From NCBI RefSeq assembly GCF_055900595.2, contig NZ_CM148325.1: DNA of 64,000 nucleotides. The stretch is one strand, 5' to 3'. The position numbers and the translations under genes were made by a program. Position 1 is the first letter of the stretch. Each line of letters begins with the position of its first letter. The notes under the pieces are model-generated. The model was given only the letters and a program-made list of their open reading frames with translations. It had not been told where the DNA came from and did not search any database. Shown here piece by piece: positions 6,386 through 63,606 of this stretch.

Positions 6386-7120
6386 TTAACGCGTTCGCTG
6401 CGAAAGCACCTGCTGCTTATCCAGCTTTTTCACCAGCGGCTGCACCACCTTATCCCCATGCTGACCAAAATATTGATACAACGTATCGGACGCGCTTTTG
6501 GTGAGCACCATAATCTCAATGCGCCGGTTACCCGCGCTTTGTGGGTTTTTGGCATCCAGCAGCATCTGGTCCGCCATCGCGCTTACCTGCATCACTTTAT
6601 CTTCCGGCATCCCGGCGTCTTCCAGCACCCGACGGGCCGAGAGCGCGCGGTCACCCGAAAGGTTCCAGTTGTTGTAGATATTGCTTTTATAGGCCATCGC
6701 ATCGGTATGCCCGGTAATAATAATTTTGTTGTCGAGCGAGTCGAATACCGGCGCGAGTTCCACCAGCAGCGTTTTAAAGAACGGCATAATCTTCGCGCTG
6801 CCGCGTTCAAACATATTGCGGTTCTGGTCATCTTTAATCAGCACGCGTAATCCCTGCGGGACAATCTCCATCTCCAGATTGGCTTCCATATGCGCATCGC
6901 GGGCGATGGTGTTGATACTGGTCGCCAGCTCGCCAAGCTCAGTGGCAGACTTCTTCTTCACTAGCGCCGTTTTCTCGTTGACGTCGCGGGCTTTTTTCTC
7001 CGTCTCTTCCGGCACCGCCACGGTGGCAGGTTTCGGCGGATGCGTCGGGCTGATTTTATTTAACGGCGACAGCCCGCCGCCATTGAAAATCGACTGCCCG
7101 TGCAGCGCGGCGATAATGCT
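6386..7120 (-). pseudogene. lafU: MotB-like lateral flagellar motor protein LafU, 5'-truncated remnant
   Basis: ORF has a MotB/OmpA-like C-terminal peptidoglycan-binding region but lacks the N-terminal transmembrane segment; the ORF-track N-terminus is antisense read-through into lfhA'; boundary approximate. Confidence 0.7.
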
Positions 7121-7139
7121 TTCACGCTCAGATTTACTA

Positions 7140-8855
7140 ACACTGTTGACAATCAACTTTATTGTCGTCACCAAAGGGGCCGAGCGTATTTCCGAGGTTT
7201 CTGCCCGTTTTACCCTGGACGCGATGCCCGGCAAGCAGATGGCGATTGACGCCGATCTTAACGCCGGGTTGATCAACCAGGCGCAGGCGCAGACCCGCCG
7301 CAAAGATGTTGCCAGCGAGGCCGATTTCTACGGCGCGATGGACGGGGCATCGAAGTTTGTGCGCGGGGATGCCATCGCCGGGATGATGATTCTGGCGATC
7401 AACCTGATTGGCGGCGTTTGTATCGGGATCTTCAAATACAACCTGAGCGCCGATGCCGCCTTCCAGCAGTATGTGCTGATGACCATCGGTGACGGCCTGG
7501 TGGCGCAGATCCCTTCCCTGCTGCTCTCCACCGCGGCGGCGATTATCGTCACCCGCGTCAGCGACAACGGCGATATCGCCCATGATGTGCGCCACCAGCT
7601 GCTGGCAAGCCCGTCGGTGCTCTACACCGCCACCGGGATTATGTTCGTGCTGGCGGTGGTGCCGGGAATGCCGCACTTCCCGTTCCTGATGTTCAGCGCC
7701 TTGCTTGGCTTTACCGGCTGGCGAATGAGCAAACGCCCGCAGGCGGCGGAGGCGGAAGAGAAAAGCCTCGAAACGCTGACCCGCACAATCACTGAAACCA
7801 GCGAGCAACAGGTCAGTTGGGAAACCATTCCGCTGATCGAGCCCATCAGTTTAAGCCTCGGTTACAAACTGGTGGCGCTGGTGGATAAAGCGCAGGGCAA
7901 CCCGCTCACCCAGCGTATTCGCGGCGTGCGGCAGGTGATTTCCGACGGCAACGGCGTGCTGCTGCCGGAGATCCGCATTCGCGAAAACTTCCGCCTCAAG
8001 CCCAGTCAGTACGCCATTTTCATCAACGGCATTAAGGCCGATGAAGCGGATATTCCGGCGGATAAGCTGATGGCTCTGCCCTCCAGTGAAACCTACGGTG
8101 AGATTGACGGCGTGCTGGGGAACGACCCGGCGTACGGGATGCCGGTGACCTGGATCCAGCCTGCGCAGAAAGCGAAGGCGCTGAATATGGGGTATCAGGT
8201 GATCGACAGCGCCAGCGTAATTGCCACGCATGTGAATAAGATTGTGCGCAGCTATATTCCTGATTTGTTTAACTATGACGATATTACTCAGCTGCATAAC
8301 CGTTTGTCGTCGATGGCACCGCGCCTGGCGGAGGATTTGAGTGCGGCGCTGAATTACAGCCAGTTGCTGAAAGTGTACCGGGCACTGCTGACCGAAGGCG
8401 TTTCCCTGCGCGATATCGTCACCATCGCCACCGTGCTGGTCGCCAGTAGCACCGTCACCAAAGATCATATTCTGCTGGCGGCCGATGTGCGCCTGGCACT
8501 GCGGCGCAGCATTACCCATCCGTTCGTTCGCAAGCAGGAGCTGGCGGTGTATACGCTGAATAATGAACTGGAAAATCTGCTGACCAACGTGGTGAATCAG
8601 GCGCAACAGGGCGGCAAAGTGATGCTTGATAGCGTGCCAGTGGACCCGAATATGCTCAACCAGTTCCAGAGTACGATGCCGCAGGTAAAAGAGCAGATGA
8701 AAGCGGCGGGGAAAGACCCGGTGCTGCTGGTGCCGCCGCAGCTGCGCCCGTTGCTGGCGCGTTATGCGAAGTTGTTTGCGCCGGGGTTGCATGTGCTGTC
8801 GTATAACGAAGTGCCGGATGAGCTGGAGTTGAAGATAATGGGGGCGTTGATGTAG
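7140..8855 (+). pseudogene. lfhA: FlhA-like lateral flagellar export protein LfhA, N-terminally truncated remnant
   Basis: FlhA homology begins mid-protein at NFIVVTKGAERISEVSARFTLDAMPGKQMAIDADLNAG (about nt 7146); upstream part of the 709-aa ORF is not FlhA-like; boundary approximate. Confidence 0.75.
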
Positions 8856-8856
8856 G

Positions 8857-10990
<2,134 letters not shown>

Positions 10991-11099: not shown

Positions 11100-11247
<148 letters not shown>

Positions 11248-11809: not shown

Positions 11810-11921
11810 GGGAAAGCGGCTCGCAAAATATTCGCAGACTCGTAGGCATGATAAGACGCGCCAGCGTCGCATCAGGCATCGGCGCATAACCGCCGGATGC
11901 GGCGTACACGCCTTATCCGCC
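11810..11921. repeat. REP/BIME array
   Basis: gtaggcatgataagacgcgccagcgtcgcatcaggcatcggcgcat...gccggatgcggcgtacacgccttatcc. Confidence 0.75.
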
Positions 11922-12680
11922 CTACAAAATCGTCTCTTCTGTCAAAATCCTGCGCGCGCCCAAAAAGTGATCCTGCCAGAAAGGTTCAGCTAACCGACTT
12001 ACCCGAATGGTTTCCCCGGTGCGCGGCGACTCGATAAACTGACCGTCTCCCAGATACACGCCCATATGGTCGGCAATCTCGCGGCTGTGAATATGGAAAA
12101 ACAGCAAATCTCCCCGGCGCAGGTCGTTATTTGCCACAATGGTTGCCCGACGGTAGTGATACATCTCATTGGCCGTGCGCGGGAGTTTCGCCTCGAGGAT
12201 CTTGTTGTAGGCATAAAAAACCAACCCGCTACAGTCGAAGCCTTGATCGGGTCGCGTGCCACCCCAGACGTATGGCTTGCCAAGCTGCTGCTCCAGACGG
12301 TGAATCGCCACTTCGGTGATATTATGCAGGTGGTTACTGCTGAGGAAATGATTGTTTTCCGCCAGCGCCTGCCAGCGTCTGTCACTCGCCTTGAGCGGCG
12401 CAGGAAACCATTCTGGATGCTGTTTTATCTGTTCGCGGTTGTGTTGCCGCAGTGCCCTTCTGCTTTCAGCATTGCCTTCCACAATATAGCTGGCCTGCTT
12501 TTTCAGATGAATTTGGTACTGTTTTAATAAACGCGCACGGTTTTGCATCCGCTGGCGGGCGGCGTAGCTGAAAGAGATATGTGATGTGGTGGCGCTGGCG
12601 AGTAAAGGGAGCAAAACGCATAACGAAAACACGCCTGGATGCAGAAATCTGCCGAGCAAGAACGAAGACATGAAGGACAT
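11922..12680 (-). CDS. yafL: NlpC/P60-family lipoprotein peptidase YafL
   Basis: 252-aa ORF with signal peptide and NlpC/P60-type motif (GFDCSGLVFYAY). Confidence 0.85.
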   Translation of the reverse strand: MSFMSSFLLGRFLHPGVFSLCVLLPLLASATTSHISFSYAARQRMQNRARLLKQYQIHLKKQASYIVEGNAESRRALRQHNREQIKQHPEWFPAPLKASDRRWQALAENNHFLSSNHLHNITEVAIHRLEQQLGKPYVWGGTRPDQGFDCSGLVFYAYNKILEAKLPRTANEMYHYRRATIVANNDLRRGDLLFFHIHSREIADHMGVYLGDGQFIESPRTGETIRVSRLAEPFWQDHFLGARRILTEETIL

Positions 12681-14499: not shown

Positions 14500-14650
14500 T
14501 TAAGAATTTTCAGGTCGGATGCGGCGTGAACGCATTATTCGGCCTACGGTTCGGGTACAGATTTGTAGGCATGATAAGACGCATCAGCGTCGCATCAGGC
14601 ATCAGCGCACAAGTGCCGGATGCGGCGTAAACGCCTTATCCAGCCTACGC
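14500..14650. repeat. REP/BIME array
   Basis: Repeated gtcggatgcggcg...cgccttatcc / gtaggcatgataagacgc units. Confidence 0.75.
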
Positions 14651-15234: not shown

Positions 15235-15473
15235 GAGGATATCCTTCAGCATAAATGTAATAGACAAAATGCAGTGTACCGGATACCGCCAAAAGCGAGA
15301 AGTACGGGCAGGTGCGATGACCAGGACTTTTTGACCTGAAGTGCGGATAAAAACAGCAACAATGTGAGCTTTGTTGTAATTATATTGTAAACACATTGCT
15401 AAATATTTTTACATCCACTACAACCATATCATCACAAGTGGTCAGACCTCCTACAAGTAAGGGGCTTTTCGTT

Positions 15474-17918
15474 ATGATGATTTTGAGTATTCTCGCTACG
15501 GTTGTCCTGCTCGGCGCGTTGTTCTATCACCGCGTGAGCTTATTTATCAGCAGTCTGATTTTGCTCGCCTGGACAGCCGCCCTCGGCGTCGCTGGTCTGT
15601 GGTCGGCGTGGGTACTGGTGCCTCTGGCCATTATCCTCGTACCGTTTAACTTTGCGCCTATGCGTAAGTCGATGATTTCTGCGCCGGTATTTCGTGGATT
15701 CCGTAAGGTGATGCCACCGATGTCACGCACTGAAAAAGAAGCGATTGATGCAGGCACTACCTGGTGGGAAGGCGACTTGTTCCAGGGTAAGCCGGACTGG
15801 AAAAAGCTGCATAACTATCCGCAGCCGCGCCTGACCGCAGAAGAGCAAGCGTTTCTCGACGGCCCGGTAGAAGAAGCCTGCCGGATGGCGAATGATTTCC
15901 AGATTACTCATGAGCTGGCGGATCTGCCGCCGGAGTTGTGGGCGTACCTTAAAGAGCATCGTTTCTTCGCGATGATTATCAAAAAAGAGTACGGCGGGCT
16001 GGAGTTCTCGGCTTATGCCCAGTCTCGTGTGCTGCAAAAACTCTCCGGCGTGAGCGGGATCCTGGCGATTACCGTCGGCGTGCCGAACTCATTAGGCCCG
16101 GGCGAGCTGCTGCAACATTACGGCACTGATGAGCAGAAAGATCACTATCTGCCGCGTCTGGCGCGTGGTCAGGAAATCCCTTGCTTTGCACTGACCAGCC
16201 CGGAAGCGGGTTCCGATGCGGGCGCTATCCCGGATACCGGGATTGTCTGCATGGGCGAGTGGCAGGGCCAGCAGGTGCTGGGGATGCGACTGACCTGGAA
16301 CAAACGCTACATTACGCTCGCGCCAATTGCGACCGTGCTTGGGCTGGCGTTTAAACTTTCCGACCCGGAAAAACTGCTGGGTGGCGCAGAAGATTTAGGC
16401 ATTACCTGTGCACTTATCCCGACCACCACGCCAGGCGTGGAAATTGGTCGTCGCCACTTCCCGCTGAACGTACCGTTCCAGAACGGACCGACGCGAGGTA
16501 AAGATGTCTTCGTACCGATCGACTACATTATCGGCGGACCAAAAATGGCCGGGCAAGGCTGGCGGATGCTGGTGGAGTGTCTCTCCGTGGGCCGCGGCAT
16601 CACCCTACCTTCCAACTCAACCGGCGGCGTGAAATCGGTAGCACTGGCAACGGGCGCGTATGCGCACATTCGCCGTCAGTTCAAAATCTCTATCGGTAAG
16701 ATGGAAGGGATTGAAGAGCCGCTGGCGCGTATTGCCGGTAATGCCTACGTGATGGATGCTGCGGCATCGCTGATTACCTACGGAATTATGCTCGGTGAAA
16801 AACCTGCCGTGCTGTCGGCTATCGTTAAGTATCATTGTACCCACCGTGGGCAGCAGTCGATTATTGATGCGATGGATATCACCGGGGGTAAAGGCATTAT
16901 GCTCGGTCAGAGCAACTTCCTGGCACGAGCTTACCAGGGCGCACCGATTGCCATCACCGTTGAAGGGGCCAACATTCTGACCCGCAGCATGATGATCTTC
17001 GGTCAGGGAGCGATTCGTTGCCATCCGTACGTGCTGGAAGAGATGGAAGCGGCGAAGAACAATGACGTTAACGCGTTCGATAAACTGCTGTTCAAACATA
17101 TTGGCCACGTCGGCAGTAACAAAGTTCGCAGCTTCTGGCTGGGCCTGACGCGCGGTTTAACCAGCAGCACACCAACCGGCGATGCCACTAAACGTTATTA
17201 TCAGCACCTGAACCGCCTGAGTGCCAACCTCGCCCTGCTTTCTGATGTCTCGATGGCTGTGCTGGGCGGCAGCCTGAAACGTCGTGAGCGTATCTCGGCA
17301 CGTCTGGGGGATATTTTAAGCCAGCTTTACCTCGCCTCTGCCGTTCTGAAGCGTTATGACGACGAAGGCCGTAATGAAGCCGATCTGCCGCTGGTGCACT
17401 GGGGCGTACAGGATGCGCTGTATCAGGCTGAACAGGCGATGGATGATTTACTGCAAAACTTCCCGAACCGCGTGGTTGCCGGGCTGCTGAATGTGGTGAT
17501 CTTCCCGACCGGACGTCATTATCTGGCACCGTCTGACAAGCTGGATCATAAGGTGGCGAAGATTTTACAAGTGCCGAACGCCACCCGTTCACGTATTGGT
17601 CGCGGTCAGTACCTGACCCCGAGCGAGCATAACCCGGTTGGTTTACTGGAAGAGGCGCTGGTGGATGTGATTGCCGCCGACCCAATTCATCAGCGGATCT
17701 GTAAAGAGCTGGGTAAAAACCTGCCGTTTACCCGTCTGGATGAACTGGCGCATAACGCGCTGGCGAAGGGGCTGATTGATAAAGATGAAGCCGCTATTCT
17801 TGTGAAAGCTGAAGAGAGTCGTCTGCGCAGTATTAACGTTGATGACTTTGATCCGGAAGAGCTGGCGACGAAGCCGGTAAAGTTGCCGGAGAAAGTGCGG
17901 AAAGTTGAAGCCGCATAA
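15474..17918 (+). CDS. fadE: Acyl-CoA dehydrogenase FadE
   Basis: Start set at [21 protein letters not shown]... within the 840-aa ORF (814 aa); acyl-CoA dehydrogenase domains. Confidence 0.9.
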
Positions 17919-18434: not shown

Positions 18435-18578
18435 GTTATTAACCTCCTAAAGCCTGGCGATAACACGATAATTTGCAAATCAGATATTTCCAATATCAGC
18501 ATTTGTTATCAATTTATTCTGCGCTAAGGCAACTGCCTGATAAGGTGTTAGAGTTATAAAACCCTTCGCATAAAGGAG

Positions 18579-19343
18579 TTGTACACCGTGCCTGGTTTGA
18601 AGATTACGCTTTTACAGCAACCACTGGTGTGGATGGATGGTCCTGCCAACCTGCGTCATTTTGATCGTCAACTGGAAGGTATTACCGGGCGCGATGTGAT
18701 CGTTCTACCGGAGATGTTTACCAGCGGCTTTGCCATGGAAGCGGCAGCTTCGTCGCTAGCACAAGATGACGTAGTGAACTGGATGACAGCTAAAGCGCAG
18801 CAGTGCAATGCGCTGATTGCAGGCAGTGTTGCATTACAAACGGAGTCTGGTTCGGTTAACCGCTTTTTGCTGGTTGAGCCGGGCGGCACGGTACATTTTT
18901 ATGATAAGCGTCATCTGTTCCGAATGGCAGATGAGCATCTGCATTATAAAGCGGGCAATGCGCGAGTGATTGTGGAATGGCGCGGCTGGCGTATTTTGCC
19001 GCTGGTGTGCTACGACTTACGTTTTCCGGTGTGGTCGCGCAATCTCAACGATTATGACCTCGCCCTGTACGTTGCCAACTGGCCTGCTCCGCGCTCTCTG
19101 CACTGGCAGGCATTGCTGACAGCCCGCGCGATTGAGAATCAGGCGTATGTAGCGGGATGTAATCGCGTCGGCAGCGATGGCAACGGCTGCCATTATCGCG
19201 GTGACAGCCGGGTGATTAATCCACAGGGCGAGATTATCGCTACTGCCGACGCGCATCAGGCAACGCGCATTGATGCGGAGCTGTCGATGGCGGTGTTACG
19301 GGAATATAGAGAAAAGTTTCCGGCATGGCAGGATGCGGATTAG
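18579..19343 (+). CDS. yafV: Nitrilase/CN-hydrolase family omega-amidase YafV
   Basis: 254-aa ORF with carbon-nitrogen hydrolase signature; last conserved backbone gene before the island. Confidence 0.85.
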
Positions 19344-19784
19344 TTTAGGTTGTGGTGAGTGGGGGTTGTGTTTAGGGCCGGGGAGAGTTGGGGTATGACT
19401 ACGAAAGCCCGCTCTCCTGCGACCACTTTTATCATAGGAGTGTGGAAGTGCTTTTCCATCAATCGCGATGACGTCTTTGTCATCTGAAGAATGACATTCA
19501 CGCATCCGGTTAATAAAGCATTCGTGAAATTTTGCAGGACTGATACATGATACAACTCTGGCAATAGTATCGTGAACAGGAATACCATTTTCAAAATCAC
19601 CATATTGCTTCAAAAAATCGAGATGAGTTTCCCCGAAATCCTCTATATATTCCCAACCTTCTGCTCCAGAAATAACGGCACAAATAGTCAACAGTAGAAT
19701 ATCCGATAATTTATGTTCCACTTTCCAGGCTTGTCTGTAATCGGGGATAATAGAAATATGTTCCATCAATTTTTTAAGTTCCAT
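19296..19784 (-). pseudogene. H-repeat (ISAs1-family) transposase, N-terminal fragment
   Basis: [80 protein letters not shown]... matches Rhs-associated H-repeat protein N-terminus; C-terminal two-thirds absent. Confidence 0.75.
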
Positions 19785-19968
19785 TTTGTTCTCCTTAATT
19801 ATGTAAGGAGTATTTGATCATGTATAAGCAATAAAAAACAGCTTCAGGTAATGAGGAATATCTCAATTTTTAAACATAAAATGCGAATTGTTTAGTACAA
19901 AAAAGCAGCGTTACGTGATCTTTCCCTGCTAAGGCCGGTAAGGCTAACCTCGTCTGGTTCCGCCACCC

Positions 19969-20487
19969 GTGAGATTAGCCTCTCCGTTGGCGGTATTAAA
20001 ATCACTTAGTGGAGGTTGCCTTATGGCTACAATCCTCCCCCCTGATTATGATTTACTGTCCATTCCTTTCAGTTCTGCCACCGATTTAACTGACCTGGCC
20101 GATCACTGCGATCGTTTCGCTGAAACTCTTATAGAGTGTCACGATCCGGCGCTGAAAATGGCGCTATATGGGCGTCTTCGCGCCTGTCTCGCCATTCTGC
20201 ATCCCACGCTGAACGAGCCGATTCCGTCCCATCTGGTGGACAGCCTGACGCTTGATGATTTGCCGACGTCGTTTCCGCGCTTTGAACCAGATGCAGAACA
20301 GTTGTGTCAGTATTGCCTGACGTTGCTCCAGCTTCTGACGGAACGGGCGCAGGGATCGGAAACACAACAATCCCTTACTGGATTACTGTGCGAACTGGTC
20401 TGGTTCTTTGCAGCAAAACTGAAAGCACCACGCTGGCTGCATACTGCTGATGGCGTGGTCTTTATCGAAGATCTGATCGAACCATAA
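19969..20487 (+). CDS. Hypothetical protein (no recognisable family), within Rhs element tail
   Basis: 172-aa ORF; probable start at internal MATILPPDYDL; no motif recognised. Confidence 0.4.
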   Translation: MRLASPLAVLKSLSGGCLMATILPPDYDLLSIPFSSATDLTDLADHCDRFAETLIECHDPALKMALYGRLRACLAILHPTLNEPIPSHLVDSLTLDDLPTSFPRFEPDAEQLCQYCLTLLQLLTERAQGSETQQSLTGLLCELVWFFAAKLKAPRWLHTADGVVFIEDLIEP

Positions 20488-20653
20488 GATGGATATCCCC
20501 GGATTCTCGCCTGTAAGTGCAGGCAGAGATCCGGGAGAATACCCGCATACATTCAGCGCAAACATTCCTGCCAGACCATCCGCGCGCGGTTCCTCTGTCA
20601 GTCACAGTCCGCATCGTAGATAAACTGATGTTCCGTAGCTGATGTAATTAAAC

Positions 20654-21268
20654 TCATATATCCGTAAGTGATTTAAAATCAGCAACACGGGCAAATTCCT
20701 TTTTCGGTAGTACCAAAGACTCTAGTCGTGCTGATAGCAGTTCAACCATAAACTCTGCCCACCCTAAGTCAAATTCATCACAAAGAGGTCCACGACTTTC
20801 ATTTATAACTATTTTCCAATTACAATTTTTTTCTAATTTCCAGAATAAAACCTCTCCACTATCAGTTATACCAAACGGGAGAACACCATCTTCCGATGGA
20901 AAAAAATTGTATGGGAATTTTTCGCCATGAAGTTTGACCTCAGCAAGAGCCGAATTTATTTCCTTTGCTTGCTCGATTAAATTAATATATGGATTATCAA
21001 CAAACGGGCTAAAGATCCAAAGGAACCCATTTATTCGTCCTATCCCATATTCATCAATAAAGGATTTATAATCTTCTGGCAACAAAATACCTAGCCTAGA
21101 CTCTGCTTTCCGCCAGTCATTGACGCCATTATAATCGTCAATAAGGTTTTTATAATCATTAGACAATTGAATACCGAGTTCAGATTCTAACCGTCCCCAA
21201 TAAGTAGTTATTTTCTCATTAATAACTGCTGGTGGCGGAATTATTTTCTTTATCATATCAATAGACAT
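20654..21268 (-). CDS. SMI1/KNR4 (SUKH-type) family protein, candidate Rhs immunity protein
   Basis: 204-aa ORF with features remembered for SMI1/KNR4 immunity proteins; located downstream of the Rhs C-terminal toxin. Confidence 0.6.
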   Translation of the reverse strand: MSIDMIKKIIPPPAVINEKITTYWGRLESELGIQLSNDYKNLIDDYNGVNDWRKAESRLGILLPEDYKSFIDEYGIGRINGFLWIFSPFVDNPYINLIEQAKEINSALAEVKLHGEKFPYNFFPSEDGVLPFGITDSGEVLFWKLEKNCNWKIVINESRGPLCDEFDLGWAEFMVELLSARLESLVLPKKEFARVADFKSLTDI

Positions 21269-21313: not shown

Positions 21314-21511
21314 TCAATTTTCATAATCCAGAATTGGCTCATCTAATGCTTCTGAATAACGAAGAAGATTCTCTCGCAAATCTTCAAGGGATTCACCTCG
21401 CGGAGACACTGGTTTTTCACTATATCCACAAACCTTACCTGCTTCATTATAATATACCTCATAGATAGCAAGCTCCCCTTTAAATTGCATAACTCTATAA
21501 TTCCAAGTCAT
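21314..21511 (-). CDS. Small hypothetical protein immediately downstream of the Rhs toxin; candidate cognate immunity protein
   Basis: 65-aa ORF starting 9 nt after the Rhs stop; position typical of an Rhs immunity gene; weak HicB-like look. Confidence 0.45.
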   Translation of the reverse strand: MTWNYRVMQFKGELAIYEVYYNEAGKVCGYSEKPVSPRGESLEDLRENLLRYSEALDEPILDYEN

Positions 21512-21519
21512 ATCTCCTC

Positions 21520-22383
21520 CTATTTTTTATGATAATCAACAATATCATGAATAATTATTTCATTTTCTGTTTCAGAATATAAAACTCTATCTCCCCCTCT
21601 TCCTTTACCACTTCCTGGTAAGTCGGCTGCTGATTTCCCTTTTAAATCACCATGTAAAGAATGCTGGTTTTTTCCTGACTCACCACGAGAAAGCATAATT
21701 TTAATAGCATCATAGGCTTCAGCTTGTTTTCCTTTGAGCGCATCCCCCTTCTTCGCCGCCAAATCCTCCTCTATGATGGTTTTCATTTGGGTAGGACATT
21801 TTTCACCTGCCAGCCCCCACGGGTCGCACCAACCCACCGGATTATGCACATAAGACTGCGTATCCAGCCCGCCGCTCAGTTTCAGCGGATCCTGGCTTAA
21901 ATACTGCCCCGTCCCGGCGTCGTAGTAGCGGTGTAAATTATACCACAGCCCGCTCTCCTCATCCTGCCACTGGCCCATGAAGCCCGCATCGCAGCTTTCA
22001 CGCTCACTGTCCGGCGAGTCGTTTGCAGCCAGCCCCCACAGGCTGCGGTGTTTCGTCCACACCTTCCGCCCGTTCGCGCAGTACATCTCCTGCGGCGCGC
22101 CGTCCGGGCCGGTCACTACCGGGTAAAAATAACTTCTGTCATCATTCGCCGCCCGGCTTTCCTTCGCCAGCAGTTCAAATCTGCCCCCGGTAGTGCCACT
22201 GCTCCCGTAGCGCCGGGCTGCCGTCTGCATAGCGTTTCTCACTTGTGGAAAGCGCCATCCCAAGCCACTGGTAGCGTACTTCGCTGATGGCGTGCGGGCT
22301 TCGTTTCCACGCTGCCCGGATAACGCAGCGTTTTGCCGTTCGTCTGCCAAAGGCGTCGTAGCTGTACTGCCACACTTCACCAT
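21520..22383 (-). CDS. rhs: Rhs C-terminal segment: end of Rhs core (DPxGL motif) plus YoeB/RelE-like toxin domain; out of frame with the upstream Rhs ORF
   Basis: Contains GLWYNLHRYYDAGTGQYLSQDPLKLSGGLDTQSYVHNPVGWCDPWGL (Rhs core end) followed by ~95 aa ending ...GKGRGGDRVLYSETENEIIIHDIVDYHKK resembling YoeB/RelE toxins; overlaps the main Rhs ORF in another frame over 22175-22383. Confidence 0.7.
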   Translation of the reverse strand: MVKCGSTATTPLADERQNAALSGQRGNEARTPSAKYATSGLGWRFPQVRNAMQTAARRYGSSGTTGGRFELLAKESRAANDDRSYFYPVVTGPDGAPQEMYCANGRKVWTKHRSLWGLAANDSPDSERESCDAGFMGQWQDEESGLWYNLHRYYDAGTGQYLSQDPLKLSGGLDTQSYVHNPVGWCDPWGLAGEKCPTQMKTIIEEDLAAKKGDALKGKQAEAYDAIKIMLSRGESGKNQHSLHGDLKGKSAADLPGSGKGRGGDRVLYSETENEIIIHDIVDYHKK

Positions 22384-25300
22384 CTGGTGTCTTTATCTCG
22401 CGCAGACGGTCGAAGTCATCCCAGCGGTAGCGCCACTCCTGCGGGCGAAAGCCGAGTTTTTGGTCGGTGCGCTTTGTCACCCTGCCGCAGGCGTCGTATC
22501 CGTAGCGGCTGTCACCGGCCTGGTTCACACATTCATTATTGTACTGGTGCTGCGACAGAATACCGTTTATCCGGCTTTCCGCTATCTGCTCATTGACCGT
22601 ATAGCGGTAGCGCTCTTCCTGTGCCGGACCACTGGCGTCCAGCCGCAGTACGCTGGTTATCTGGTCGCGGGCATCGTACTGGTAGCGCGTTTCCCGCTCC
22701 GTACGCGTTTTCGACCACACTTCATGCCCGGTCAGGCGGCCCGATTTATCCCACGCGTAACGGTGTTCGCCCAGCGGTCGCCACGATGCCACGCTCTGGT
22801 GGCTGCCTGCCAGCCGCTCTGCGCCCTGTTTTTGCCATGCCGTACGTCCGCAGGTGTCGTATCCCTGCTCCTGCATATAGACCGCATGGTTCAGCGGCGT
22901 CTGCGCCAGCCAGCTTTCCTCATCCTCCGGGCGGTAACGCCGATTTTTTTCAAGGCCCGCGGGGGAATGACTGAAGTCCATCCGGTGACCGTTGCTGCGG
23001 TAGCCCGTCAGAATGCCCGAAGCGTCGTATTCTCTCTGTGTTTCCCCGTCCGGCGTTGTGGTGCCAGTCAGCCTTCCGGCTTCGTCGTAACGGTACTCCG
23101 TGCGCTGGCCGTCCTGCTCTTCCGCCACCAGACGATGGCGTTCGTCCCACTCCAGTTTTACCTCACTGGTGAGCGTATAGCCTGCTTCACTGCCGTCGCT
23201 GCGCTCATACACCTGCGCACTCACCATCCGGTCATGGCGGTCGTACTGATAGCTGAGTTTCTGATGCTCGCCGCTGATGGTCGCCACCCGGCCATATTCA
23301 TCCCTCGCATAGCGCCATACGCTGCCGTCCGGGCGGTGTTTTTCTGCCAGCCGGCCCTGTTCATCACGGATATAGACGGTTCTGCGTCCCGACCAGTCCT
23401 CCTCCCCGGCCATCTGGCCCGCCGCATCGTAGTACAGCCGCCACTGCTGGTTGCCGCTGCGCGTAAGCTGCGTGAGCCTTGCGGCACCATCGTAGTCGCA
23501 AAGTATCCGCTGCCCGCCCGCGTCCTCCACTTCCCGCAGCAGGTCAAATGCCCCGTGGCGGTAGCGCGTGGTCTGGCCCATGGCCCCGGTGTGGAGAGTG
23601 ATTTTGCCTTCACCATCATAGCGGAAGGTTTCAGCGCCACCGTCGGCCCGGATTACTGCGCTCAGTTTCTCATGCGGGTTATCGGCACCGGGGCGGTACT
23701 GCCAGTTCACGCTGCGCCCTTCAGCATCCACCAGCCCCGTCAGCCGCAGCCAGCGGTCTTCCGTGTAATGGGTTGTGCGGCCTTCACCATCGGTATGGGA
23801 AAGCAGGCCACCGTGAGCGCTGTAGCTCCACTGTTCGTGGCTGCCGTCCGGGTACTGTATCTCCTTGAGCAGACCGTCTTCGGTATGACGGTACTGCCAG
23901 TTCTGCCCGTTCACCTCCCGGCGGATAAGATTCCCTTCGGCGTTATAATGGTACGCCGCCGTGGTGCGGTGGTCCTGGTATGCCGTAACCTGACCAAATT
24001 CATCCCACTGCCATTCACGTTTACGCCCGTTCTCGTCCGTTTCGCTCAGGATACGCCCGGCATAATCGCGTTTTATCTGAGTAATGCGCCCACCCGGCTG
24101 GCGAATACACAGCGGCTGGTCGTATTCGTTACGCTCCCATTCAGTGATACGCCCCAGCGGGTCACGCTGTTTTTTCAGCAGCCAGGACTCATCGAACCAC
24201 AGCGTGGTGGTGGCTCCGGTGGCATCGGTGTAATCGGTTCTGCGCTCCTCCGGGAAGTAGCGGAAGGTGTCGTTATACAGGCCTTCCTGTGTGCCTGTGG
24301 CAGTCACCCGGCCTTCATCGTCATAGCGCAGGTGGAAGTGCGTCGGGCCGTTGTCGCGCCAGGAACTCAGCCAGCCCTGTTCGGTATAGGTATAATGCAA
24401 CGCGCCATTAAAGCGGGTCTGCACATCGCTCAGTCGCTGTTCATCGCCGTGACTGATATAGTCATAGCGCACCAGCTCGCTGCCGTCTGACTCGTCGATC
24501 ACACGGAATATCTGCCCCTGCGGGCCACACATCACCCGCAGATTCAGGCCGCTGCTGTGGGTTACGTTTGTCAGTTGGCCGATGACGTTATAGGTGAAGC
24601 GAATTTCGTTGCGGTTGCGGTCTTTTATTGCCGTTAGCCGCAGGCGGCGTGCGCCGGGGGAGATGGGCGTAAAGATATAACCCAATTGTGAGTATTCGTC
24701 GAAGATAATAGCCCGCTCACGGTTTCCCAGGAGGCGATAGTGCGGGACAAGCAGGTTACGGCTACTGTATGGTGCCTGCTCCGTGGAGTAGGCCAGACAT
24801 AGCCCCTCAGCATCAAAGTAGGTGACGTTTTTCCCGTTGCAATCGAACTCCAGAAACTGCGACCAGTTACACAACCAGCGACTGCCCAGCAAACCACTAA
24901 CCGGATGTCGGCCTGTATAAGCACGTTTCAGCGTCAGCGGTAAAATATGCGGATAGTTGAAATCAGTTCGGTAATCCAGATATTCACCCGTTCCGGTATC
25001 CACCGGATCGCTGAACCCCTGACTGATACGCTCATTTGCGGCTCTGTTTAACTGCTTTGCTCCCCATAGAGCTGTTAACACTTCCAGACTTGATACAACA
25101 GATTGCTCCAGCACCGTCATATCGGCATTAATCGGCCCATACTGTCCGGTCGTCTTATCAGCCGTAATGGTTTTACATCCTTCCTGAATAACTGCCGAGC
25201 AGGTAATTTTATGGCCCTTACGCGCCAGCGGCAGGCTGTTGACGGAAATAATTTTGCTCCCTTCCACTATCTGTGGAGGAGGACTGCCCGGATCCTTACT

Positions 25301-25942
25301 ACATTCAACCGGATCAGTGACGCGAGCTACCGCTTTTCCTTCAAAAAAAACATTAGGAGAGCCTTCTACAATCTGTCCGGTTTCAGATGCCCAGCGGGAA
25401 CCAATTACCATCGCTGCGCCACCGACAAATCCACCAGCTAATCCCCCGGCCCCGGCAGCAACGGTGGCAGCCAGCACACCCAATGCCGCGCCCCCTGTAG
25501 CGACAACCAGAGCTCCCACTGCAATCCCTACAATAAGTCCACCGATTAACCCACCAATAGCACCCAGAAAGGAATTGTTATGAACAATGTGATGACCCAC
25601 ACACGCAGGTATATCTGTTGGGCCGGAAACTGCGTGATCTTTACCCCAGGTATCCATGAACCAGTCACCTGCTTTGGTGCCCAGCCATCCCCCCAGCATC
25701 CCGCCAACCAGTCCGGCAATCAAAGGGCCTCCAAATCCTGCAACAGCTTTGGCTATTCCGGCTGCACAGGTGTTTGCTGCTGCGGCTGCCAGTCCTACCT
25801 TTGCCGTTGCTCCCACCATACTGACAGCCATTATTCCAGTACTGGCAATATGTCCTGTGGTAGCAATACTCTCCACTGTTTCGGCATTACTGTCCCGTTG
25901 ATCCAGCTCCGCTAACTTCTCCTGCGCGCTTTTTTCCGTCAT
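22175..25942 (-). CDS. rhs: prePAAR-TMD-PAAR-Rhs T6SS effector, main ORF (YD-repeat shell)
   Basis: 1255-aa ORF: N-terminal region with Gly-rich transmembrane helices and PAAR-like segment (GSPNVFFEGKAVARVTDPVEC), then many YD repeats; stop at 22175 where another frame continues. Confidence 0.8.
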   Translation of the reverse strand: MTEKSAQEKLAELDQRDSNAETVESIATTGHIASTGIMAVSMVGATAKVGLAAAAANTCAAGIAKAVAGFGGPLIAGLVGGMLGGWLGTKAGDWFMDTWGKDHAVSGPTDIPACVGHHIVHNNSFLGAIGGLIGGLIVGIAVGALVVATGGAALGVLAATVAAGAGGLAGGFVGGAAMVIGSRWASETGQIVEGSPNVFFEGKAVARVTDPVECSKDPGSPPPQIVEGSKIISVNSLPLARKGHKITCSAVIQEGCKTITADKTTGQYGPINADMTVLEQSVVSSLEVLTALWGAKQLNRAANERISQGFSDPVDTGTGEYLDYRTDFNYPHILPLTLKRAYTGRHPVSGLLGSRWLCNWSQFLEFDCNGKNVTYFDAEGLCLAYSTEQAPYSSRNLLVPHYRLLGNRERAIIFDEYSQLGYIFTPISPGARRLRLTAIKDRNRNEIRFTYNVIGQLTNVTHSSGLNLRVMCGPQGQIFRVIDESDGSELVRYDYISHGDEQRLSDVQTRFNGALHYTYTEQGWLSSWRDNGPTHFHLRYDDEGRVTATGTQEGLYNDTFRYFPEERRTDYTDATGATTTLWFDESWLLKKQRDPLGRITEWERNEYDQPLCIRQPGGRITQIKRDYAGRILSETDENGRKREWQWDEFGQVTAYQDHRTTAAYHYNAEGNLIRREVNGQNWQYRHTEDGLLKEIQYPDGSHEQWSYSAHGGLLSHTDGEGRTTHYTEDRWLRLTGLVDAEGRSVNWQYRPGADNPHEKLSAVIRADGGAETFRYDGEGKITLHTGAMGQTTRYRHGAFDLLREVEDAGGQRILCDYDGAARLTQLTRSGNQQWRLYYDAAGQMAGEEDWSGRRTVYIRDEQGRLAEKHRPDGSVWRYARDEYGRVATISGEHQKLSYQYDRHDRMVSAQVYERSDGSEAGYTLTSEVKLEWDERHRLVAEEQDGQRTEYRYDEAGRLTGTTTPDGETQREYDASGILTGYRSNGHRMDFSHSPAGLEKNRRYRPEDEESWLAQTPLNHAVYMQEQGYDTCGRTAWQKQGAERLAGSHQSVASWRPLGEHRYAWDKSGRLTGHEVWSKTRTERETRYQYDARDQITSVLRLDASGPAQEERYRYTVNEQIAESRINGILSQHQYNNECVNQAGDSRYGYDACGRVTKRTDQKLGFRPQEWRYRWDDFDRLREIKTPDGEVWQYSYDAFGRRTAKRCVIRAAWKRSPHAISEVRYQWLGMALSTSEKRYADGSPALREQWHYRGQI

Positions 25943-29831: not shown

Positions 29832-30751
29832 TTACGAGTATTGCCCCTTCAGCCGCAGCGCATCCACATACCGTCCTTCACTGCAGGGCAAGATTACGAA
29901 AGCCCGCCCCGCAAGGACTGACGCGAGGTAGTTTCTGTCCATGGCTGCTTTTATCATCTTACGTCTTAACCCTGCCTTGGTTTCGCCGTACTGCACCTGC
30001 CAGGCGCGGGGTGGATAATTTTCCACCAGCCGCTTTTCCACCGGAAAGGAATATTCATCCAGTACTTCATCGAGAATATCCACCACGGTTTTGTTCTGGA
30101 ACGCTTTGTAGTCGCTGGTATGGGTCAGCAGCTTCAGCCATGGCTCAATGCGTAATTCATACGTTACCGAACGGCCCTCATGGCCGACCACCCTCGCCGC
30201 CGTCACCAGCCCGCTGATATACCGTTTTCCGCCACCGTCCAGTTCGATACTGACGCACAGGTCTTTGCCTACCATGGGCTGAAGCGGCAGGTTGGCGGCG
30301 AGGGAGACATATCCGAGGTTCAGGGTGTCCGGGGTTTTAAGCTGTACTATGTAGGAAAACAGGTTTCCAAGCCCTTCCGAACCATTCATGCCTGCAAACA
30401 AAAGCAGCTGCGGCGGCACCGCACTACCACTTACTGTGACGTTATGCCCCCCGGACCACCGGCAGCAAGCGACGCCGCCGCATCCTGAACTGCACCAGCC
30501 ATATCCGAGATCCCTGCTGCGGCGGCTGCGGCTTGCGCAGCAGCTACTGCGGCTTTAACCAGACCTGACGGTTCCGGCAACGCACCAAACAGGTCCGCCG
30601 CGGCCTGTTCTGCCATCTGCTCGGCTGCATCAGCTACATCGGTTGCGGCTGAACTGGCGCTTACAGCACTACTTTCTCCGGCTATCGGTGGCGTGGAGAT
30701 AGCTGGCCCACCGTTACTGCCAGATTTATTACCCGTAGATACAAAACTCAT
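29832..30751 (-). pseudogene. vgrG: Truncated, frameshifted vgrG duplicate fused to H-repeat and tagF 3' remnants
   Basis: Two ORFs (30431-30751 and 29832-30419) match the first ~270 aa of the full vgrG; frame broken at a C-run near 30445-30455; 3' end reads ...[24 protein letters not shown] (H-repeat protein C-terminus) then ...[10 protein letters not shown] (tagF C-terminus). Confidence 0.75.
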
Positions 30752-54674: not shown

Positions 54675-54751
54675 TGGCGGAACGGACGGGACTCGAACCC
54701 GCGACCCCCTGCGTGACAGGCAGGTATTCTAACCGACTGAACTACCGCTCC
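54675..54751 (-). tRNA. aspV: tRNA-Asp (GUC)
   Basis: Exact reverse complement of the E. coli tRNA-Asp sequence as remembered; downstream of dnaQ; T6SS island abuts its 3' end. Confidence 0.95.
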
Positions 54752-62894: not shown

Positions 62895-63530
62895 AAATGC
62901 GCCTGTAAGGCTCTGTTACCAGCCGCGCCCTAACAGGCGCATACGATCTGACATTTGCATTCAACTTCGTTACTTACGGCCCGTAAACGGGCTGCCCGGA
63001 TATGGAATCGATAACTGCTCCCCCATTTTATCCTCTTCAAGCTGGTGCTTTATGTAGTCCTGTATCTTCGCCGTGTTCTTACCCACCGTATCGACATAGT
63101 ACCCTCGGCACCAGAACTCCCTGTTTCTGTATTTGAATTTCAAATCCCCAAACTGCTCGTAAAGCATCAGACTGCTTTTCCCTTTCAGATATCCCATAAA
63201 GCCGGATACGCTCATTTTGGGTGGGATTTCCACAAGCATATGGATATGATCTGCGCAGCACTCTGCTTCCAGAATCCGTACGCTTTTCCACTCACACAGC
63301 TTTCTCAAAATACTGCCTATCGCCCTACGCTTCTCTCCGTAAAACGCCAGTCTTCGGTATTTCGGCGCAAAAACTATGTGATATTTACAGTTCCAGCGGG
63401 TGTGCGCTAAGCTCTTTTCGTCCCCCATTGGGACCCCCTTTTGATTTCTTGTTTGACACTTGCAGTTGCCAGACCGCAAGGTGTTTTAACAAATCAAAAG
63501 GGGTTTTAATAACTGGCTCAAAGCTGAAAG
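62895..63530 (-). mobile_element. IS200/IS605-family (IS200-like) insertion sequence; boundaries approximate
   Basis: Single small transposase gene with HUH Y1 motifs; stem-loop over the translation start region (ccccttttgatttc...caaatcaaaagggg) and a hairpin near the 3' end. Confidence 0.75.
62970..63428 (-). CDS. tnpA: IS200-family Y1 (HUH) transposase TnpA
   Basis: Start set at MGDEKSLAHTRWNCKYHIVFAPKYRR...; HxH motif in ADHIHMLVEIPP. Confidence 0.85.
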   Translation of the reverse strand: MGDEKSLAHTRWNCKYHIVFAPKYRRLAFYGEKRRAIGSILRKLCEWKSVRILEAECCADHIHMLVEIPPKMSVSGFMGYLKGKSSLMLYEQFGDLKFKYRNREFWCRGYYVDTVGKNTAKIQDYIKHQLEEDKMGEQLSIPYPGSPFTGRK

Positions 63531-63535
63531 CTTTC

Positions 63536-63606
63536 CGGAACCCCCAGCCTAGCCGGGGGTTTTCTGTGCACAAAAAAACCTCGAGCGTTAACTCGAGGCT
63601 TCTTAA
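63536..63606 (-). terminator. rrnH operon terminator hairpins downstream of aspU
   Basis: Minus-strand hairpin gcctcgagttaacgctcgaggc + T-run, followed by a second hairpin aaacccccggctaggctgggggtt. Confidence 0.75.

Follow-up and report, generated by a model that had tools for sequence, protein, structure and literature searches.

Two-site antisense regulation is known from c4/icd-ant of phage P1 and from CI/seqA-seqC of phage P4: in P1, the b2 target covers the ribosome-binding site of the first gene, and in P4, the antisense RNA is made from the very leader that it targets. Here, we describe a related locus in a stretch of 64,000 nucleotides from an Escherichia coli chromosome (the window), which carries a type VI secretion system (T6SS-1)/Rhs island of ~35 kb between yafV and the tRNA-Asp gene aspV (~54678–54751; gene order fadE at 15396–17918, ivy, yafV ending at 19343, island, aspV, dnaQ). 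The interval at the yafV-side end of this island comprises a remnant of the insertion sequence (IS) ISEc1, an H-repeat, and a gene, orf154, from a family of ~153-residue proteins referred to as orf153 (Table 1). With a probability of roughly three in four, we read the interval as the decayed yafV-side end of the aspV-linked island, consisting of an old ISEc1 copy and the stump of a P4-type immunity operon.

Intact relatives of this locus resemble the P4 immunity region in that c4-a1b1, isrK, and C4 lie upstream of orf153 in equal order and spacing, and in that orf153 elements have a P4-type integrase next to a tRNA gene. They differ from P4 in their downstream genes, which are unrelated (P4: epsilon, PF25738; ORF151; ORF106; alpha primase), and the window keeps only the 3′ 41 nt of C4 plus the targets. 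P4 ORF151 follows the cI region and was therefore considered as an orf153 homologue, but was discarded at an hhalign probability of 0.2%, and orf154 gave no PF25738 match to P4 epsilon. In the gene maps read, none of sid, delta, psu, and alpha was called beside orf153; no search was aimed at them across the loci. With the immI region of P1/P7 (c4, icd, ant), the relatives share the antisense segments a′ and b′ and the downstream targets a2 and b2; in addition, P4-like prophages matching window positions 19930–20042 at ~76% have genes annotated in RefSeq as 'Icd-like' at the equivalent position. Unlike the immI genes, orf153 does not resemble Icd or Ant in sequence and gave no match in NCBIfam or Pfam, and the second gene of orf153 modules encodes a Ner-like helix-turn-helix (HTH) protein and not an antirepressor. 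This gene, which normally follows orf153, resembles those of Mu Ner and Edwardsiella EnrR in belonging to the HTH_35 family and in being island-borne, whereas it is missing from the window.

The second comparison concerns the H-repeats found at E. coli Rhs element ends, among them yafF of strain K-12, with which the window remnant shares the IS family, the position distal to the toxin/immunity tail, and the yafV junction. It differs from yafF, which keeps the C-terminal ~190 bp of the element, in having retained both termini and the N-terminal 125 codons. It also differs from these H-repeats in that the IS is separated from the immunity genes by a P4-type relic that is missing from most E. coli.

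The C4 antisense RNA leader and its stump in the window

Rfam searches identified c4-a1b1, isrK, and C4 antisense RNA directly upstream of orf153 in a canonical orf153 island (L004) and in E. coli Ec-U9-1 (L002), which is 93.5% identical to the window over 19410–20700. C4 (RF01695, gathering score 45 bits) scored 84.6 bits in L004 and 71.6 bits in L002, and isrK 61.4 and 65.3 bits, respectively. In phage P4 (L099), the three elements were located at 8420–8705, and C4, which is the P4 CI RNA, scored 74.9 bits.

The second C4 hairpin has an apical loop (b′) that, in 31 distinct modules, is complementary over 7–10 nt to the sequence abutting the Shine–Dalgarno (SD) sequence of orf153. The b′ loop and its target vary together, with a mean complementarity of 8.6 nt for cognate versus 4.6 nt for non-cognate pairs. 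The covariation was evaluated in a 32-sequence alignment for the helices b′–b2 and a′–a2, a′ being an unpaired segment of the C4 multiloop. Across these modules, 96.5% of the cells paired, versus 75% after shuffling and 27–47% when the partner was slid along the sequence. Compensatory changes were present in 12 of the 16 pairs, and the number of doubly changed cells was 107 versus 30 in shuffles; none of 500 shuffles attained the value observed. Since two leader sites covary with two C4 elements and one of these sites adjoins the SD sequence, orf153 is the first C4-gated gene. By analogy to P1 and P4, the regulation would be a repression.

PF10554 (Phage_ASH) matches open reading frames (ORFs) that span the C4/CI RNA gene (8168–8584 in phage P4, 7865–8023 in L004), in P4 the old 'cI' ORF and not epsilon. 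The annotation 'Ash family protein' is therefore a marker of the RNA gene. PF10554 has been used as an epsilon proxy in a survey (PMC8628076); surveys of this kind in effect detect the immunity RNA region, which bears on the scoring of P4-like elements. In a separate observation on the leader, the closing stem of C4 has a 3′ strand (CCGCCACC, ~19959–19967) that can also pair with a conserved downstream GGTGG/GGCGG run (~19988–19995). The two segments (alignment columns 45–51 and 70–79) appear to co-vary, and their pairing may represent an alternative structure in the unprocessed transcript.

In the window, the left terminus of ISEc1 (19929) abuts C4 position ~47. Missing are the promoter, c4-a1b1, and isrK, together with the 5′ strand of the C4 stem and the larger part of the b′ loop. 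Compared with L002, this corresponds to a 308-bp gap that starts exactly at the IS terminus. An Rfam search of the window interval gave no C4 or isrK match even at E ≤ 1, and no sigma-70-like promoter was predicted between the IS end and the ATG at 20023. Directly after the IS left terminus, the yafV locus with a full-length IS (L092) continues with a 332-bp Rhs core fragment, isrK, C4, and orf154; L002 continues with 78 bp of the L092-type Rhs fragment, isrK, C4, and orf154; the window with the 3′ part of C4 and orf154; and a further locus (L014) with orf154 from codon ~23. These four loci share the IS terminus and, beyond it, collinear DNA whose endpoints are nested; the junctions were most likely made by deletions anchored at the IS terminus; recombination within H-repeats would be an alternative origin.

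Two observations concern the architecture of the related loci. The Rhs core fragment of L092 (7342–7673), located between the ISEc1 left end and isrK/C4, is 95% identical to the main Rhs gene; in this locus, the P4-type module is embedded among Rhs remnants. In L002 and six similar genomes, a full-length ISEc1 (7228–8520 in L002) truncates dkgB on one side and has the Rhs fragment, isrK, C4, orf154, SMI1, and Rhs on the other, an arrangement that looks like an IS-associated inversion of the aspV–dkgB segment.

From these features, the following course can be proposed. ISEc1 would have inserted ~45 bp past yafV, with K-12 yafF as another ISEc1 remnant at the shared junction, and would then have lost ~750 bp including the catalytic domain via deletion between 8-bp repeats. 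In intact relatives, a promoter-proximal leader with c4-a1b1, isrK, and the C4/CI antisense RNA would be transcribed ahead of orf153. The a′ and b′ segments of C4 would pair with a2 and b2 of the leader, b2 lying over the SD sequence of orf153. In analogy to P1 c4-icd-ant and P4 CI-seqA/seqC, C4 would thereby prevent production of orf153 and of the co-transcribed Ner/EnrR-like protein for as long as the RNA is neither titrated nor lost. orf153 and the Ner-like protein would presumably then switch the state of the island. In the window, the Rhs immunity tail would have replaced the Ner-like gene. Because the window has lost the Ner-like gene as well as everything from the promoter through a1b1 and isrK to the 5′ half of C4, we consider orf154 an orphaned relic and not an Rhs component. 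It is probably silent or only fortuitously transcribed, would have no role in Rhs toxin or immunity function, and is best viewed as a hitch-hiking remainder of an island whose backbone formerly bore Rhs cargo.

orf154 and the orf153 protein family

The earlier note on this DNA had described an orphan, unassigned plus-strand ORF of 172 codons next to the Rhs immunity genes, and had proposed that a lack of conservation and coding signal in related genomes would speak against it. Conservation and a coding signal were both found, whereas length and assignment had to be revised. The mechanically called ORF runs from a GTG at 19969 to 20487; the gene proper consists of 154 codons from the ATG at 20023, the methionine at which 30 of 30 aligned homologues start, and is preceded by the SD sequence GGAGG at 20011–20015, 7 nt before the ATG. 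The 18 extra codons from the GTG are translated leader. The corresponding RefSeq coding sequence comprises 465 nt (WP_032302449.1, 'hypothetical protein').

Homologues of ~153 amino acids (196 proteins) were found across Enterobacterales, in Escherichia, Salmonella, Klebsiella, Citrobacter, Enterobacter, Hafnia, Pantoea, Dickeya, Brenneria, and Sodalis, and a profile search yielded 235 representative clusters (50% identity). The family occurs in 1646 of 5426 complete E. coli genomes. The orf154 product is 57–89% identical over its full length to 30 members, with 20 invariant alignment columns and the motifs LLCELVW and KAPRW. The ratio of nonsynonymous to synonymous substitution rates (dN/dS) is 0.17–0.3 for the family at dS values up to 1.4; thus, the orf153 family is under purifying selection. 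Because of the 196 homologues and this dN/dS ratio, orf154 is not a chance ORF.

A chance frame over non-coding or RNA-coding DNA might have been suspected from the 5′ 54 nt of the 172-codon call, which overlie leader and C4 sequence, and from the neighbouring 'Ash' ORFs (PF10554), which coincide with the C4 RNA gene. However, length and start codon are conserved in all 30 aligned homologues, dN/dS is ~0.2 over the range of dS given above, the predicted structure is confident, and the SD sequence is both conserved and antisense-targeted. For 20023–20487, a chance frame is effectively refuted; it holds only for the 18-codon N-terminal extension.

The AlphaFold2 model of the acidic orf154 product (isoelectric point 4.4) has a confidence score (pLDDT) of 83 and consists of a four-helix bundle with a short C-terminal β-hairpin. 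No match was obtained in Pfam, NCBIfam (E ≤ 1), PHROGs, or PADLOC, and fold searches with the model returned generic helical bundles only. A tblastn search against 50,697 phage records gave a single unannotated 1.5-kb fragment. Fusions were considered as a clue to function and discarded as uninformative: the longer domain-containing proteins carry only Phage_ASH, which overlaps the RNA gene. K-12 ykfM was likewise rejected as a positional homologue, as it has no DNA similarity.

The genomic context of the family was counted over 70 species-level loci with a near-full-length copy, in which the presence of Ash/C4 was scored by regex and tblastn proxies. Ash/C4 was present upstream of orf153 in 51 loci; downstream, HTH_35 was found in 33, Integrase_1 in 24, and a P4-type integrase in 23. 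VgrG, Rhs, or Eag genes within 10 kb were found in only four. In E. coli and Klebsiella gene maps, the order is 'Ash' ORF, orf153, HTH_35 gene, Integrase_1/Phage_int_SAM_2 protein, P4-type integrase on the opposite strand, and chromosomal flank, with defence or T6SS cargo on the other side of the orf153 module. Canonical islands are integrated beside a tRNA gene and have the P4-type integrase; their Integrase_1 protein is relaxase-like, and PF12835 has been handled as a relaxase-like signature of mobilisable islands (PMC10484663). Several canonical islands have VgrG/Rhs cargo adjoining the module, and Rhs/DUF2169 fragments were seen beside it. The HTH_35 partner protein is Ner/EnrR-like (Mu Ner, 1NEQ, 1e-24; EnrR, 7F9H, 3e-21), and EnrR of Edwardsiella is an island-encoded H-NS counter-silencer acting on type III secretion system (T3SS) and T6SS islands (PMC9023278). 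A tblastn search of window positions 19700–20800 found no HTH_35 (Ner-like) remnant; the next genes are SMI1/KNR4 and Rhs. By the context of its family, orf154 is assigned as the first gene of a P4-type operon controlled by C4/CI antisense RNA.

This distribution bears on the association with Rhs that the earlier note had suggested for the ORF. In such a reading, orf154 would belong to the Rhs tail and be maintained there by selection, whether as an orphaned gene for immunity or an accessory function or as conserved homology that anchors the exchange of cassettes. At the yafV and dkgB loci of E. coli and in Salmonella salamae, the genes indeed follow one another as ISAs1, orf153, immunity genes, Rhs, Eag, VgrG, and a like order without the IS is present in Pseudocitrobacter, with immunity/toxin cassettes that vary among these loci; dN/dS is below 1 inside the Rhs-tail subclade, and the VgrG/Rhs cargo of canonical islands fits as well. 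However, T6SS genes lie within 10 kb in only the four species-level loci mentioned, and the Rhs-tail copies are in various states of decay, often 5′-truncated or reduced to fragments (L014, L094, L085, L090). orf154 is encoded on the strand opposite that of the immunity genes and is 15–18% richer in GC (52–54% versus 35–37%), its sequence falls into none of the immunity families and gave no match in Pfam, NCBIfam, or PADLOC, and the C4-targeted leader before it marks a different operon. In most E. coli, moreover, the ISEc1 remnant directly abuts the Rhs immunity genes without orf154, and only 21 of the 5426 genomes cover at least 80% of window positions 19928–20653. We therefore regard a selected Rhs-tail component as quite unlikely.

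As a further alternative, a promoter derived from the IS or a fortuitous one could drive orf154, which, no longer under C4 control, would act as a constitutive regulator and might, for instance, influence how the AT-rich T6SS/Rhs genes next to it are silenced or expressed. The intact ORF with its strong SD sequence, a promoter-like plus-strand site within the IS that faces orf154 (19722–19751), and the Ner/EnrR type of the usual partner, with EnrR counteracting H-NS as described above, would be compatible with this. The promoter match is weak, though, and is followed by a terminator-like hairpin; the Ner-like partner gene is absent from the window, and the fold of orf154 offers no indication of a DNA-binding or regulatory domain. 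Eight complete E. coli genomes with flanks 99.9–100% identical to those of the window lack 20869–53798 (32.9 kb), the whole T6SS cluster; the deletion runs from inside the SMI1/KNR4 gene to inside tssA, and IS remnant and orf154 were kept. Retention of orf154 in such near-identical strains may be taken in favour of a regulator, while its persistence after the T6SS deletion speaks against a T6SS-specific role and likewise against a role in Rhs function. Altogether, a constitutively expressed regulator appears very unlikely.

Several points weigh against the reading of orf154 as a relic of a P4-type operon. The gene is still intact in the window, and Escherichia, Pseudocitrobacter, and Salmonella salamae have close copies (82–90% amino acid identity) placed between an H-repeat or the chromosomal flank and differing immunity/Rhs cassettes; from Citrobacter, close proteins and a partial copy as such are on record. 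The Rhs-tail subclade has a dN/dS of ~0.2–0.5, which could mean retention for function there, and a C4 RNA or promoter could act in trans or from a distance. Furthermore, the pairing lies within one transcript region and is, taken alone, no proof of repression in trans, and the presumed biochemical role of orf153 has no support from homology, as the fold matches generic bundles. It can be envisaged, though we hold it to be unlikely, that orf153, as the protein whose translation is gated by the antisense RNA, is an unrecognised effector of a P4-type (C4/CI RNA) switch in integrative, probably mobilisable islands, and that the Rhs-tail subclade was kept as a useful protein or as recombination-anchor DNA beside the H-repeat.

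The ISEc1 remnant and the yafV junction

The remnant between yafV and the C4 stump comprises 541 bp, compared with ~1.29 kb for full-length ISEc1 (1294-bp alignment of the L002 and L092 copies, 96%), with both termini present. Its truncated transposase has the ISAs1-type DDE_Tnp_1_assoc N-terminus (PF13808, 9e-32) and matches NF033564 at 3.5e-32 over profile positions 1–96 of 314, whereas Pfam gave no match to the DDE_Tnp_1 catalytic domain. In 99.9%-identical genomes, RefSeq annotates an ISAs1 pseudogene with missing C-terminus at 19410–19784. Lacking the catalytic domain, the IS remnant is defective and unable to transpose on its own.

The motif CGCTC(C/T)CC is present twice in ISEc1, close to the right end and within the transposase gene; between the two, ~750 bp have been deleted, starting ~20 bp from the right end and reaching as far as transposase codon ~125. 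In agreement, window positions 19300–19420 align with 5964–6083 of L092, and 19410–19903 with 6825–7317. The same internal deletion is present in other E. coli and in Escherichia sp. E1V33. The left terminus (...CTTTCCCTGC) is exact in the window, L002, L092, and L014, and in L094 it is kept up to ...CTTTCCCTG; in the window, it reads ...GATCTTTCCCTGC with 19929 as its last base. A left end at ~19899, with 19900–19927 as flank, was rejected, as the five-copy comparison places it at 19929.

Window and K-12 are collinear over 18478–19417 (97.6%) and then again at aspV; the K-12 yafV–aspV interval of ~2.4 kb contains only yafF, yafU, ykfM, and yafT. The yafV–IS junction is identical to that of K-12 yafF, which represents the C-terminal ~190 bp of an ISEc1 at this shared junction, and the right inverted repeat is degenerate alike in the window, L092, and K-12. 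These data bear out two statements of the earlier note, namely that an H-repeat remnant lies at the yafV-side end of the aspV-linked T6SS/Rhs island and that K-12 has a smaller remnant at the junction. Of the N-terminal H-repeat fragment it had described, the restriction to the transposase N-terminus stands, whereas the element itself is an internally deleted IS with both termini. The overlap of transposase and yafV reported there proved to be read-through: transposase homology ends at 19410, and the last 38 codons of the ORF at 19296–19784 extend across the end of the IS and the spacer into yafV, of which they cover 48 nt. Nor does the island begin right at the yafV stop; variable DNA starts at the right inverted repeat at ~19389, 46 bp past the stop.

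A second H-repeat scar was observed within the island, a solo ISEc1 right end of ~95 bp at 29884–29979, beside the ORF at 29832–30419. It has a perfect inverted repeat (CAGGGCAAGATTACG), abuts a truncated vgrG (N-terminal part of Phage_GPD only), and is the only other match to K-12 yafF in the window.

Table 1. Coordinates of the features at the yafV-side end of the island
Feature	Position	Strand	Evidence
yafV (2-oxoglutaramate amidase)	18588–19343	+	ORF list; Pfam CN_hydrolase 3e-33; RefSeq yafV in 99.9%-identical L001
Mechanical ORF spanning the transposase remnant	19296–19784	-	ORF list
yafV–IS spacer, chromosomal rather than island DNA	19344–19388	.	Conserved with K-12 (collinear, 97.6%)
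ISEc1 (H-repeat, ISAs1 family), internally deleted	19389–19929	-	Alignment to full-length copies in L002, L092
Right inverted repeat, degenerate (tggggtatgactacg; consensus CAGGGCAAGATTACG)	19389–19403	.	Copy comparison
Transposase pseudogene, N-terminal ~125 codons	19410–19784	-	PF13808 residues 8–92; RefSeq pseudogene 'missing C-terminus'
Internal-deletion junction, 8-bp microhomology CGCTC(C/T)CC	19410–19417	.	Alignment to L002/L092
Left inverted repeat (reverse complement gcagggaaagatcacg)	19914–19929	.	Five-copy comparison
3′ 41 nt of C4/CI-type RNA gene (model ~47–87), including a′ AGGCTAA 19941–19947	19930–19970	+	Alignment to L002
a2 antisense target TTAGCCT, complementary to C4 a′	19975–19981	+	Helix 2: 100% of cells paired, 5/7 pairs compensatory
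b2 antisense target CTTAGTGGA (20005–20013), overlapping SD GGAGG (20011–20015)	20005–20015	+	Helix 1: 93.8% paired, 7/9 pairs compensatory
orf154, intact ~153-residue orf153 family member	20023–20487	+	Homologues, alignment, dN/dS, AlphaFold2
Spacer to the convergent SMI1/KNR4 gene	20488–20653	.	Alignment and palindrome inspection
SMI1/KNR4 (SUKH) immunity gene, first of the Rhs toxin/immunity tail	20654–21268	-	PF14568 2e-18, PF09346 5e-12

Neighbouring features and implications

The yafV gene of the window stops at a TAG (19341–19343) where K-12 reads GAG, five codons short of the stop in K-12 and L001 (corresponding to 19356–19358), the usual protein comprising 256 amino acids; accordingly, yafV is annotated 15 nt longer in 99.9%-identical strains (L001 and L098 are genomes near-identical to the window flanks). 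On the other side, a strong imperfect palindrome or hairpin at 20488–20547 directly follows the orf154 stop, and similarity to other Rhs-tail copies stops at ~20505–20540. The SMI1/KNR4 gene served as a boundary marker and lies outside the feature under study. No repeats of the interval were found elsewhere within the window at E ≤ 1e-3.

Further into the island, the main Rhs effector gene carries an additional C within a C-run (~22188) in comparison with the intact 1473-residue gene of L002 and is thereby split, with the ORFs 22175–25942 and 21520–22383 overlapping out of frame (22175–22383); the split gene is either a pseudogene or the result of a homopolymer sequencing error. An ORF of 65 codons on the minus strand (21314–21511), between the SMI1/KNR4 gene and the Rhs C-terminus, matches PHROG 21321 (7e-8, function not assigned) and is conserved in L002, L011, and L092. 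Elsewhere in the window, gathering-level Rfam matches to isrC, naRNA4 (three copies, derived from repetitive extragenic palindromes), and STnc490 (an Hfq-binding small RNA) were obtained at 10387–10509, 11110–11181, 11845–11922, 14568–14645, and 63438–63561.

If the favoured reading of a decayed island end with a P4-type stump holds, the left boundary of the T6SS island would be explained as layered decay, and the ORF would be dropped from the candidate Rhs/T6SS parts. The feature would then represent ordinary decay, with the orphan of an uncharacterised C4-gated family as its sole informative element. For the family itself, the analysis places a widespread group of hypothetical proteins as the product of the first gene behind a C4/CI RNA, targeted at its ribosome-binding site and followed by a Ner/EnrR-like regulator, which makes it experimentally approachable. 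The findings suggest that many integrase islands without P4 capsid-hijacking genes still use P4 immunity logic.

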